This document shows, one piece after another, positions 3,552-30,831 of a stretch of 42,752 bases of DNA. Within the stretch, counting starts at the first letter, position 1. Each line of letters opens with the position of its first letter. The position numbers and the translations under genes are program-made. The notes beneath the pieces were generated by a model. The model saw only the letters and a program-made list of their open reading frames with translations, was not told where the DNA came from and searched no databases. Source of the DNA: Octopus sinensis (taxonomy: Eukaryota); NCBI RefSeq assembly GCF_006345805.1, contig NW_021835062.1, positions 1 to 42,752 on the forward strand, in the 5' to 3' direction.

Positions 3552-4095
3552 GTGCGATGGGTAAATTTTCGCCATTTTATATTTTATAATTTTAATTTCG
3601 TGCATACACATTGTTTTTGATTTTGTCGACTACACAGTATAGTAGAGTCAATTGGGCACCGTCTGTGAGTAAAAAAACAGCACCATGACGCAATTCACTT
3701 TGTCACAAATTTGGAATCGACATGCTGTGCTGCTTGGCATTCGCGCCAGAAGCTCCAATACAAGCATTTCAGAGTGTTTGGGTGTCAATTTGAGGAGAGT
3801 GCATATAACAAGAGCGATAAAAATCACTAAGAGTGATAAAAATCACTAAGAGTGATAAACATCCGCTCAACATCATGGTGTTTGGAGTGATTACTAGCGA
3901 TGGCAACGTTATGTCTCCACTCATCTACCCACAAGGCCTCACATTCAACACGAATCCAAAATCACAAGTGCCTGGAGGAGGTGGTGCTGCCCTAGGTCAA
4001 GAGGGTGGCTGCTGGAAGACACTATTTCTGACAACAGGACTCTGCACCATGCCACACAAGGTAGTCATGGCTGTCAGACAATTTCTGCGACTACA

Positions 4096-4327
4096 GAAGG
4101 CGGTGAGCTGCAGAATCGTTAACACGCCGGACAAAATGCTTAGCGGTATTTCGTCTGTCTTTACGTTCTGAGTTCAAATTCCGCCGAGGTCGACTTTGCC
4201 TTTAATCCTTTCGGAGTTATAAATTAAGTACCAGTTACGCACTGGGGTCGATGTAATCGACTTAATCCCTTTGTCTGTCCTTGTTTGTCCCCTCTATGTT
4301 TAGCCCCTTGTGGGCAATAAAGAAATA
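4096..4327 (+). mobile_element. Family-B SINE, full length, 18-bp TSD
   Basis: TSD acaatttctgcgactaca at 4078-4095 and 4328-4345; B-box-like gagttcaaattcc; tail gccccttgtgggcaataaagaaata. Confidence 0.9.
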
Positions 4328-6103: not shown

Positions 6104-6142
6104 TAGGCGCAGGAGTGGCTGTGTGGTAAGAAGCTTGCTTCC
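6104..6142 (+). mobile_element. 5' head of a family-A SINE split by an insertion
   Basis: taggcgcaggagtggctgtgtggtaagaagcttgcttcc; the SINE resumes at 8205. Confidence 0.8.
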
Positions 6143-8204
6143 AGTTCCAGTTCGTTAGTGTTCTTCATTGTACCATTGAAGTCTCTACGCTGGTGTGCAA
6201 CGGACGAAAGACGCTCTACTGTAAGGTAAGACCTTTTTGAGTCCAGTGGGATTCGTTGTCTGTAAGGTTTATTTTTGTACAAGCAAGGCGTCCTCACTGG
6301 ATTCTGAGCTTTTGGTCTGCCTGCGGTAGAGACGTGTGTTTTTCTTACTTAGCTGTAAGAACTGCTGTCTGGAGGCGTATTTCGCCTCCAGATTAATTTA
6401 ATTTGAGAATTGAATTATTCTCATTTATTTTTGAGAACTGTGTTTGTTTGCCTGCGTGGAAGCCTTTTGGAAAATAATTTCAAGGAATTACACAAGGATT
6501 GAAAGAAGCTGTGAAGGCCAGGATTACCGTGCGGCCGAAAAAAATATTTGTCTTTGCTGTATCTTGAACTCTCGTTCTCTTCTTCTGTCGTTTATTTGGA
6601 AAAAAAAACTGTATTGAACTGATTATTTTTCTTTTTTTTCCCTCTTGTTAAGTCTTTCTTTTTTGTTTTTCTTTCTGTATTATTTTAAAAAAATTGTGGA
6701 CTATATTTGGAACTTTTTTTGCACATGGCAAGGAACAAATTTGTTGAATGGGAGTTGACACCTCCCAAAAAAATGGCTTGTGGAGTTTGAAAGAAAGACG
6801 GTGGTGTTGAGGACTTACTCCATGTCCCTCGACACCATAGCCGTCTTCCAGAAAAAAATAATTGAAAAAGAGCTGGCAGACTATATGCCAGTTATTAAAT
6901 ATATCTCACGGGGGTTCAAATATGCAACGGTGTGGTAGCTGTTTGACTCTCCAGAAGAAGCTTGCGAATTCGCAAGCCAGCTCCTGGAGGGCAGGGAGAA
7001 TTTTGTTCTTTCCTACTTATTGTGGGAAGAAGTTGACGAGGGCTTAGGTCTGCGGTTTGCCACCCGGAATTGAGGATACTATCCGCCGGGGTCTGGGTGG
7101 CAGCAGTACCAAGCTGTAAAAAATTTTTCTTGCGGCTGATTGGGAGGGATCAAAAGTTGTTTTGACCCTATGGACCCAGTCAGCCGAAAATTTGATTTTT
7201 TAAGGATTGCCGGGTCTAGGTATCCGGTGATACTTGAGGGACGCCCACCTCCCAAGTGTCATCTGTGCCTGGAACTGGCCATATTAAGAAGAACTGTCCT
7301 AAGAACCAAAATGAGGTCCTGGAGCAGTTAATAAAAGTACCACTCCCTGCTCCCTCATTGGTGGGAGAAAAGGAGGAAGTCGAGGAGGTTTCCACCTCCT
7401 CAAAAAAAGGAAGAAAACGAAAGGTGGGCAACCATCGTTGCCCACCGAAGAAACCCAGGGCTGCGGGAGGAGGGAGGATCTGCGGGACAAGGCAGAGGAA
7501 CTCCACCCTCCCGTGGCTCAAAGGAAAAACAGAAAATGGGACATCGCCTGCGGCTGGTGATATACTGCCGGCGTGTCCCGACGCATCTTTGGTGGGAGTT
7601 GTACCACCAATGATGGAGGCTGTACAGCCCGTCCGTGATATGGAGGAGGAATTTGTGGTCTTCTTCCATAAGGGAGGGACAGTGGAGCGCTTTGTTGGCA
7701 ATCTTAAACTGAAGGACCGGAGGGAGGGGATCCTGTCCTGCACGGAGGACCTTGAGTGGCCTTCGCAGGTGGCTGCGAAAATCATGAGGGAGAACGACCT
7801 GTTCATGAAAATGGATTCCTTCCCCAAGGATACCAATAGATTTATGTTGAATTGGCCCGACTTGGAGCCGTCCAGGTGTTTTTTTCTGAGGCGAGAAGTC
7901 TGGTCAGGCAAGAAGATTGTATTTTTGATACCTAAATGGACTTGAGTAAGAGGTTTATTGCCCCAAAATGGTTTCGTATGTAGTCAATGTAAGAGGTCTA
8001 TTGCCACCTTAATGTGTTTTTGTAAGAGGTTTGTTGCCTCAAAATGTTTTATAAAAAAACAATGTGCTCGGGTATACAGCAATTGGCGGGCGCTGATGTT
8101 ACCCTCATTTTTCACCATTTCATTTGTCATTCATATCATTATGTGTGTGTCCAGCCCGCAGCTTCCTTCCTGTGTAAGGCCCTTATAGCCAATTAAATTA
8201 ATAA
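6143..8204 (+). mobile_element. ORF1-only non-LTR retroelement (L1/Tx1 ORF1-like, HAL1-type architecture)
   Basis: Perfect 15-bp TSD aagaagcttgcttcc at 6128-6142 and 8205-8219. It ends aattaaattaataaa, carries a disrupted gag-like ORF, and has no endonuclease or RT. Confidence 0.75.
6725..7945 (+). pseudogene. Disrupted gag-like ORF1 with CCHC zinc knuckle
   Basis: Reconstructed across frameshifts and stops: MARNKFVEWELTPPKK/WLVEFERKTVVLRTYS...LFDSPEEACEFASQ/ILFFPTYCGKKLTRA*VCGLPPGI...YPVILEGRPPPKCHLCL/TGHIKKNCPK. The CX2CX4HX4C motif is at 7257-7297 with a 1-nt deletion. It continues into the 7256-7945 ORF. Confidence 0.7.
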
Positions 8205-8587
8205 AAGAAGCTTGCTTCCCCTCCACACGGCTCTGTGTTCAGTTCCACTTCGTGGCATCTTGGGCAACTGTCTTCTGCTATATCCTCGGACAGACTGAAA
8301 CCTTGTGATTAGATTTGGTAGACGGAAACTGAAAGAAGCCCGTCGAATATATGTGTGTGTATTTGTATGTTTGACTCTGTCCCCACCCACCTCCACTACC
8401 ACCATTGCTTGACAATCGATGTTGGTGTCTTTACGTCCACGTAACTTAACAGTTCGGCAAAAGAGACCGATAGGATAAGTACTAGGCTTGCAAAGAATAA
8501 GTCTTGGGGTCGATTTCTTCGACTAAAAACCCTTTAAAGCGGTGCTCCAGCATGGCCGCAGTAAAATGACTGAAACAAGTAAAAGAA
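8205..8587 (+). mobile_element. Remainder of the split family-A SINE
   Basis: Continues the family-A body to the tail gcggtgctccagcatggccgcagtaaaatgactgaaacaagtaaaag. Confidence 0.85.
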
Positions 8588-11276: not shown

Positions 11277-11960
11277 TTATTTATTGTCATCATTTTTTTC
11301 TTTCGAAGTTGGATCTTCCAGATATGTATTTTGCCAACCACGGATGCATTCTTCCATTTGGTTATTCAAACTTCGAAGCTGGTTGTTTAAATTCTCGTAG
11401 TGTTGCTCGTCTGATAAACATAGGTCCGTTTTCCTATAGGTATGCACACCATCTGCGGGTTCCGTGGTTTCGGAGCTCATTGTTCTAAATGAAGAGAATC
11501 TTTTTTCGTAAACCTGGTTTTTCGCATGCACATCTTTAAATTCCTCTTTTAGCATTTTGTATTCGTCTTCCATTTGCTTATATTTCTGGTTTTCTTGAAG
11601 CAACTTAGCGTATTTTTCCTTCAAGTCTTTAATTTCTTTATCACTATATTGTTTGTGTCTTTCTTGGGCTTCCTTTAAGCTGTTTAATTCTGCTTCTATA
11701 ATCTGACATTTCTCCTCTTTCTCTCCCAAAGCCGAAGCTAACTCTTCTTTTTCTGCATCGATTTTTTCCATTTTCATCGAAAGTCGTTTATTATCTTCAA
11801 GTTCTGAGGCCAGTTTTGCTTGCAATTGTTCTAAAGTGGAATAAATATTTTTTTCTAGTTTTGTCAGAAAAACTTTGTTTTCTTTTATATTCCTTAAATC
11901 TTGTTGTCGTTTTTCTTTGTCTTCGTTTATTCTGGCCATCAATAATTCAGGAGTCTCCAT
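11277..11960 (-). CDS. Uncharacterised 227-aa coiled-coil protein (single coding exon)
   Basis: Uninterrupted, non-repetitive ORF rich in E/K/L/Q with heptad-like periodicity over roughly residues 10-155. Start context is acaagATGG, AATAAA overlaps the stop, and a possible upstream acceptor lies near 12063. Confidence 0.7.
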   Translation of the reverse strand: METPELLMARINEDKEKRQQDLRNIKENKVFLTKLEKNIYSTLEQLQAKLASELEDNKRLSMKMEKIDAEKEELASALGEKEEKCQIIEAELNSLKEAQERHKQYSDKEIKDLKEKYAKLLQENQKYKQMEDEYKMLKEEFKDVHAKNQVYEKRFSSFRTMSSETTEPADGVHTYRKTDLCLSDEQHYENLNNQLRSLNNQMEECIRGWQNTYLEDPTSKEKNDDNK

Positions 11961-12448
11961 CTTGTTTGTTCTTCTTTCAGATCAAATAATATATATATTT
12001 TTTTCCTTATTTTCTTTTCTTTGGGAATTCAGTTTTATCTCTTTCCGTTTTGTATTTGATCTCTTCAGGAGAGTTAAAGAAATAGAGATGTATACAGAAA
12101 CTAACATGCACTATTATACACAAACATACACATGGTGTAACACATGTATATATGCGATTGTTTGTGCATGAGTGTAATGTGTATATCTATGACATTGTGT
12201 ATATGTTAGAGAGTATGTATGTCATTACAATGTACCATACACACACCACACACATACATATGTATGTATTTATATGTCTATGCTTATGTATGTATTTATA
12301 TGTATAGACGCAGTTTAGCATACAAACATTAATATTTATACAAATTTACATACGTATATAAATATGTAAAGATTTATGTACAATTTATTGAACCTATGAA
12401 AGTTATATGCGTATTTATCGGATCGTACATACACATATTTATGTCTAC

Positions 12449-30022: not shown

Positions 30023-30831
30023 GTGCGATGGGTAAATTGTTGCCATTTTATATTTTTAATTTCACGCATGCACATTGTTTTTGATTTTGTCCACTACCCA
30101 GTGTAGTAGAGTCAGTCGGGCACCGTCTGTGAGTAAAACAGCAGCATGACGCAATTCACTCTGCCAGAAATTTGGAAACGACATGCTGTACCGCTTGGCA
30201 TTTGCGCCGGATGATCCAGTATAAACAGATGGGGAACACACAGAACAATCGTTGGCTTGTCGTGACCCCAAAACATATACTAAGAGCGATAAACATCAAA
30301 CATCCAGTCAACATCAAGGTGTTTGGCGTGATCACTAGTGATGAGGAAGTTATGCCTACATTCATTTTCCCACACGGCCTCACATTTAACATGGAGGCCT
30401 CCATCAAGTGCCTGGAGGAGATAGTGCTACTCTGGGCCAAGATGGTGGCTGCGGGAAGTCCCTGTGTCTGGCAACAGGACTCTGCACAAGCAGAACTGTC
30501 AGGCAACTTTTGCGACCACATCACCCCTACCATCTGGCCCCTTAACTCCACAGACTGCAATCCCTTGATTATTATGTGTGGGTGCACTTGAGCGAGAGAC
30601 CAACAACACTCCTTGTAACACCAAAGAGGAACTGAAGGCAAAAGAGTTGCAGGAGATTCCAAAGTCGTCTGAAGGCCGTGGTTGAAACCAATGGCGATTT
30701 TATTAAATAAATCTACTCTTTAGTATTTCAAGATATTTTAATGAAATTTTGGTAAGTATATCTATGAAAATGAGTTGTCAGTGTTGTTTCATTTTTGTTG
30801 ATTTAGACGACAGTTTATTCACCACACCCTG
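30023..30831 (+). mobile_element. Internally deleted Tc1/mariner (maT-like) transposon, copy 2
   Basis: ORF 30172-30591 contains KHPVNIKVFGVITSD...VWQQDSA...IWPLNSTDCNPL; ends match 3552-4933. Confidence 0.85.

Follow-up and report, generated by a model that had tools for sequence, protein, structure and literature searches.

An ORF1-only retroelement family of Octopus sinensis at a fixed base of a SINE head, likely copied by an L1/Tx1-type LINE of the same site

Results

Structure of the window copy

In the 42,752-nucleotide stretch of Octopus sinensis DNA analysed here (the window), the unit at 6128–8219 is very probably a decayed copy of an ORF1-only non-LTR family (family A) at a fixed base of an abundant SINE's head, likely copied by the endonuclease and reverse transcriptase (RT) of an L1/Tx1-type LINE that uses the same site. 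An exact 15-bp direct repeat, AAGAAGCTTGCTTCC, occupies positions 6128–6142 and 8205–8219 and encloses 2,062 bp, in agreement with a preliminary description of this DNA, which had proposed a unit of about 2.06 kb within a perfect 15-bp target-site duplication. The 5′ UTR, estimated there at about 580 nt, measured 582 nt, with the ATG at 6725. The left flank is the head of a SINE and the right flank is the remainder of the same SINE, six other copies of which lie in the window; the insertion into a SINE head that had been claimed was thereby confirmed, the two flanks being two halves of one SINE. The features of the locus are as follows.

6105–6127, + strand: 5′ part of the SINE head, with an A-box-like motif at 6116–6126; 86–97% to uninterrupted window copies
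6128–6142, + strand: 15-bp target word, left copy, in its older AAGAAG-type form, from an exact repeat search
6143–6724, + strand: 5′ UTR, 582 nt, with a start common to relatives in alignment
6725–7935, + strand: decayed ORF1 (family A) with 7 frame changes and 3 stops, domains projected from the intact relative L081; in order, two predicted RRMs (about 6750–7250), CCHC knuckle, basic linker and folded C-terminal domain (about 7630–7935)
7257–7297, + strand: CCHC zinc knuckle, split by a frameshift, placed by the homology path
7946–8204, + strand: 3′ UTR, with three 17-nt repeats at 7946, 7989 and 8022 and no room for ORF2
8160–8165, + strand: AGCTTC tag, antisense to target bases 6130–6135; its central base tracks the family-wide target variant
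8178–8190, + strand: 3′-terminal 4-bp hairpin, with one mismatch in this copy, common to family B and the autonomous LINE described below
8205–8219, + strand: right copy of the target word, its first base overlapped by AATAAA
8220–8345, + strand: remainder of the SINE head together with the body, B-box-like motif at 8237–8246; 76–83% to other window copies
8403–8586, + strand: 3′ part of the host SINE; 79–84% to four other window copies

The A-box-like and B-box-like labels follow what we take to be the consensus of these motifs. The two motifs suggest a tRNA origin of the SINE head, for which ARAGORN and Rfam gave no tRNA match. They now lie 2.1 kb apart, and because the insertion separates them, this SINE copy was likely silenced. 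The AATAAA at 8200–8205 overlaps the right duplication copy, with no poly(A) after it, and no long terminal repeats were found around the element, the 5′ UTR of which likely holds a putative internal promoter. A tblastn search with the ORF2 of the autonomous LINE detected no trace of ORF2 in the element or in the whole window, as the preliminary description had maintained for the element.

The intact ORF of about 400 codons attributed to this copy was not found. Along the ORF1-homologous path, frame changes occur near 6765, 7000, 7195, 7270, 7468, 7529 and 7888, that near 7270 splitting the CCHC knuckle, together with in-frame stops at 6936, 7045 and 7117; further frame switches at 7348–7409, in low-complexity sequence, were left out of the count. 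The longest open frame of the element comprises 235 aa (7238–7945), the homologous frame probably ending at 7935 rather than 7945, and Pfam assigned no family to any of three translations of the window's own frames. The window element is a dead copy. Elsewhere in the window, an open frame of 234 aa at 11277–11981 (minus strand), rich in E, K and L and coiled-coil-like, is possibly a host exon, and two related frames at 3821–4171 and 30133–30591 resemble decayed pieces of a Tc1/mariner-type transposase.

Absence of ORF2 and selection on ORF1 in family A

A DNA search yielded 49 family A matches besides the window, at 69–92% identity (40 of 2,444 candidates scored). A protein search detected 23 stop-free frames of 386–429 aa among 150 scored of 9,908 candidates, so that the intact ORF sought in other copies does exist. 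Two of the 23 copies (L082 and L094), the C-termini of which appear frameshifted, were dropped, and the remaining 21 were analysed. In all 21, the distance from the stop codon to the element end was 270–356 nt, and tblastn with the partner ORF2 detected no ORF2 at any of 30 family A loci. Absence of ORF2 is a trait of the family across these loci and copies. The copies also bear the marks of target-primed insertion, namely duplications and 5′ truncation, and have no LTRs.

We calculated dN/dS for the 21 copies (210 pairs), with the reservation that these copies were picked for open frames and that pairs are not independent. The ORF1 core gave 0.18–0.23 for pairs with dS >0.05 and 0.35 for the four closest pairs, the linker 0.30–0.52, and the C-terminal domain 0.43–0.51 for dS >0.05; the low signal persisted to dS >1. 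Values below 1, which the preliminary description had named as a check, were obtained across the subfamilies (about 0.2 for the core). Judged from these ratios, family A ORF1 is kept under purifying selection. The subfamilies L087, L090, L113, L115 and L116 have the RRM core in common, their linkers and C-terminal domains having diverged, and the pattern of identities suggests module swapping among them. Contigs of four runs covered 27–30 of the 30 bins of a young copy, which records presence only, not expression.

The preliminary description had considered that the unit might be a LINE that lost ORF2 in a one-off deletion, or that a host gene, here one encoding RRMs and a zinc knuckle, had been retrocopied. 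The broken frame of the window copy would fit such an origin, as would the resemblance of the protein to ZCCHC3-type domains in an Atlas search, the latter being a lead only. However, there are many dispersed copies of about 2 kb with a common layout, some of them 5′-truncated, the core dN/dS is about 0.2 across subfamilies, and the homologues in the same genome are LINE ORF1s. The 30 loci lacking ORF2 and the uniform end of the 21 open-frame copies likewise speak against a one-off deletion. We regard both origins as refuted by the family data and give them almost no weight.

Predicted ORF1 protein

The AlphaFold model of an intact family A copy (L081; mean pLDDT 66) has two RRM-matching domains (Foldseek E 2e-5; Z 7–9 over about 80 residues at 2–3 Å), beyond which come the knuckle, a linker that is disordered and a C-terminal domain modelled with confidence; folded alone as a single sequence, the latter reached a pLDDT of 43.6. 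Pfam matched only the knuckle in family A (zf-CCHC, E 0.001–0.02, below the Pfam cut-off, in three of four open-frame copies). The Pfam families RBD_ZCCHC3_1st and RBD_ZCCHC3_2nd gave no match, and the Atlas search with a homologue, which pointed to CCHC and ZCCHC3-like clusters, is a lead only (feature scores 0.89–0.90 and TM 0.31 to the ZCCHC3-type clusters). No L1 ORF1p chain was among the fold-search matches listed, which excludes nothing. The protein's sole near homologue belongs to O. sinensis, with more distant ORF1 relatives in O. vulgaris, O. bimaculoides and Argonauta.

On the strength of the model, the family A product is a predicted RRM-RRM-CCHC protein of LINE ORF1 type, not a retroviral Gag. 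The earlier label "gag-like" holds for the CCHC knuckle only, the N-terminal half being modelled as RRMs. An LTR retrotransposon or retroviral Gag was rejected for this reason and because long terminal repeats are lacking. HAL1 proper was also rejected, since the modelled octopus protein has two RRMs and a knuckle and not a mammalian L1-type ORF1.

Insertion at one base of the SINE

The 3′ ends of 15 of 17 relatives found with element sequence alone lay at the SINE word, against a window background of 0.7%, and the two off-site ends still ran on into the SINE body. At the 5′ side, eight of nine distinct ends were at the word (same background) among relatives found without flank in the query, as were 26 of 30 in a second family A sample. 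Old-type hairpin ends were also at the site in 26 of 30 cases. Genome-wide, AAG(A/T)AG exactly followed 884 of 1,417 hairpin ends. When 20 non-matching ends from one contig were read by eye, nine were element ends, ten were tails resembling a second SINE (see below) and one was unclear; seven of the nine element ends lay at or beside a mutated target and two did not. At least 51,424 exact target sites in the genome are empty.

The flanks are not random, which had been named as the outcome speaking against targeting. The preference for tRNA-like heads proposed at the same time stands only in part: targeting is strong, but directed to a single, exact base within one SINE family and not to tRNA-like heads generally, an assessment made on the SINE copies.

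An autonomous LINE and a second ORF1-only family at the same site

An autonomous element, C, was recognised in tandem arrays with ORF1-only elements. One copy (L218) is 5,432 bp long and carries open ORF1 and ORF2 between identical 15-mers; its ORF2 contains apurinic-like endonuclease, RT and zf-RVT domains, and the closest solved structure is human L1 ORF2p (E 2e-63). Young C copies, with 99–100% identity across the 3′ query, end at the SINE site in 28 of 30 cases, as does an older C lineage at 23 of 30 loci, the latter mostly on the AAGAAG-type word, like the window copy. Sequence-specific insertion of C into a repeat was thus seen in both lineages. C ends at the same base and with the same 3′ hairpin as family A, and corresponds to the autonomous LINE with common ends that had been predicted. 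We classify C as an L1/Tx1-type LINE, the putative Tx1 assignment following from domain layout and behaviour, not from a tree; no named Tx1 reference was among the 120 listed of 1,027 homologues. The common ends, common site and matching target variants suggest trans-mobilisation of family A.

A second ORF1-only family, B, was reached via a chimeric locus and has 18 of 20 5′ ends and 16 of 20 3′ ends at the SINE site. The ORF1 cores of A, B and C are 23–39% identical and form separate clades. Those of A and C are 27% identical and do not group together, although the branch is long and the deep nodes are unresolved, and no DNA similarity between A and C was found beyond the hairpin. A recent deletion derivative of C was rejected as the origin of family A on these grounds, which point instead to an old lineage that adopted or kept its partner's tail. 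No parent LINE of family A was found among the top-scoring candidates examined. Since only these were examined, an A-type autonomous LINE, unseen or extinct, may have been the source.

A, B and C stack in tandem at this base, their order varying. Mixed arrays, two to four elements long, were noted at L089, L102, L103, L105, L106, L113, L117 and L119, and about 7 of 16 family B 3′ ends are followed by another element, above the expectation from low site occupancy. In the L015/L120 chimera (L015:1012–2031), family B contributes the 5′ end and the start of ORF1, fused in frame to family A ORF1; the chimera sits inside one duplication and likely arose by template switch or recombination. Two related groups were also noted. 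A sister autonomous LINE (L181–L190, L215–L217), with an ORF2 about 61% identical to that of C, enters (ATT)n at its 3′ end at all 10 loci examined and is often arranged in tandem. Group D (L108–L112), of ORF1 type and sister to family B, is off this SINE site, and its member L108 sits in the head of the second SINE.

Target-site variants and 5′ ends

In all 40 rows, the two sides of the element carried the same A/T variant of the target word, where shuffling gave a mean of 20 (L051 and L081 denote a single locus); this agreement favours independent insertion. Alternatively, SINE and insert may move as one composite, the common flank then being inherited and not targeted. Identical 15-mers were present in only 19 of the 40 rows, and the right half of the left duplication tracks the element subfamily: a CTCG variant precedes 14 of 66 element starts vs 1 of 95 SINE bodies, and two subfamilies have private words of their own, present in 5/5 and 3/3 copies. 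These observations favour inheritance, yet the inherited stretch comprises a few bases only. Moreover, the whole SINE head is retained upstream of 5′-truncated copies, which meet it with overlaps of 6 to 15 nt (L018, L019, L024, L138 and L152), three of those joined to an intact head having a duplication of about 15 nt; L138 carries a private variant on both sides; and three unrelated element families occupy one base in mixed order. The composite origin is largely refuted and we consider it very improbable. Under targeted insertion, the subfamily-specific right half suggests that full-length RNAs likely begin inside the upstream target copy, and in full-length copies this half may come from the element RNA. 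The window's own two 15-mers are identical and uninformative on landing-site inheritance.

The 3′ hairpin and the antisense tag

A, B and C have a terminal 4-bp hairpin in common. Of 141 ends, 107 have T-A as the outer pair and 31 have G-C; in 20 further ends, the window copy included, the hairpin core is damaged. Folding the whole tails of five ends revealed no common structure beyond this small hairpin. An identical hairpin ends a second SINE family (L194, L198, L201, L203, L204, L206, L208–L210), some copies of which carry a tail near the partner's 3′ UTR sequence; by its tail, this family is likely mobilised by an L1/Tx1-type LINE. The hairpin also resembles the tail of the (ATT)n-targeting sister LINE. 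Given these two occurrences, it does not single out one partner.

The tag upstream of the hairpin covaries with the target. Among 94 family A ends, 73 could be classed, the other 21 having no tag or an unclassed site: AGCTAC accompanied AAGTAG-type sites (38/38) and AGCTTC accompanied AAGAAG-type sites (35/35). The AGCTAC tag is present in 30 of 31 young C copies, in sequence unrelated to family A, and in the older C copies AAGAAG-type sites go together with CTTCTT-type tags in 13 cases and AAGTAG-type sites with CTACTT-type tags in six (the fuzzy pattern miscalled one more row, and three have no tag). If the tag in the 3′ UTR paired with the top strand of the target, it could supply a real share of the specificity. 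The agreement of all 73 classed ends and the same tag switch in the unrelated sequence of C favour such RNA-assisted targeting. Against it, the tag is absent from family B (0/23), the ends of which are nevertheless on the site (18/20 and 16/20), so that the tag is not required; it is only 6 nt in the window copy; its counts track subfamilies and may reflect only two historical changes; and it might instead pair inside the RNA with read-through target sequence. We hold RNA-assisted targeting to be rather unlikely. The tag is likely an accessory pairing element and not the main targeting signal.

Discussion

The data are consistent with the following course of insertion. Translation of the element RNA would yield an RRM-RRM-CCHC ORF1 protein of its own, and this protein would package that RNA in cis. 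The partner ORF2 protein would recognise the common 3′ hairpin tail, nick the bottom strand directly before the AAG(A/T)AG word and prime reverse transcription there, the top strand being cut about 15 nt further on. A full-length transcript likely starts within the upstream target copy, which would aid joining of the 5′ end. The duplication would rebuild the target site, so that later elements stack head to tail. For target-primed reverse transcription in trans, cis packaging, the nick positions and silencing of the SINE, we draw on established LINE biology.

Drosophila HeT-A forms telomeric arrays with TART and TAHRE. Family A resembles that system in that ORF1-only elements and an autonomous partner are arrayed head to tail at a dedicated site. 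Unlike HeT-A, family A belongs to another clade, makes duplications of about 15 bp, has no known host role and targets an interspersed SINE, of which 51,424 or more exact sites are empty. ORF1-only LINEs have been described in three clades, L1, Jockey and CR1 (PMC5786205, PMC5753468, PMC3627910). HAL1 (half-L1, mammals), Ag-Sponge (CR1-derived) and HeT-A (Jockey-derived, encoding ORF1 only; PMC5786205) are likewise non-autonomous, with an ORF1 under selection (PMC5786205, PMC5753468, PMC3627910), and selected ORF1 without ORF2 in HAL1-like elements implies ORF1p acting in cis and ORF2p in trans. Family A differs from all three in its site-specific insertion into a SINE head, the lack of poly(A), an RRM-RRM-CCHC ORF1 and its distance from the partner's ORF1. 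The list of such elements in PMC5786205 names no Tx1-derived one.

Targeting of transposons by Tx1 elements is documented in PMC4494074: Tx1L inserts in Tx1D (Xenopus), Tx1-Mar and SINEU passengers in Mariner-N4_AMi, and Tx1-9_AMi in Harbinger. Like these families, the octopus system comprises an endonuclease-RT LINE, a site in another transposon, non-autonomous passengers at the same site and tandem insertions, and its sister family has its 3′ end in (ATT)n, which recalls Kibi and Koshi, elements that target microsatellites (PMC4494074). Unlike them, it has a SINE target, protein-coding ORF1-only passengers of two unrelated lineages and an antisense tag that covaries with the site. Our search of the literature found nothing in cephalopods on Tx1-type elements that target SINEs or encode only ORF1, although Repbase, Dfam or Bao and Jurka 2010 may already list these families; PMC13282606, in the part available, merely tabulates L1-Tx1 families. 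ORF1-only LINEs and transposon-targeting Tx1 LINEs are each known, and their combination was found in no paper in that search.

As a whole, these elements form layers of parasites: the SINE offers a safe place to land, one LINE lineage has followed this site through sequence change, and two or more unrelated ORF1-only lineages travel with the same-site LINE. The strong selection on ORF1 without ORF2 carries the HAL1 argument for a cis-acting ORF1p to another phylum. It is conceivable, though doubtful, that the system is RNA-guided in part, the tag having been re-tuned independently in C and in an ORF1-only passenger after a one-base change of the SINE, with landing-site remnants at the 5′ ends. 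The intact partner and the dated site variants open the role of RNA in site choice by endonuclease-type LINEs to testing, and, if RNA guidance were true, this would be a partly RNA-programmed, self-renewing insertion into another retroposon.
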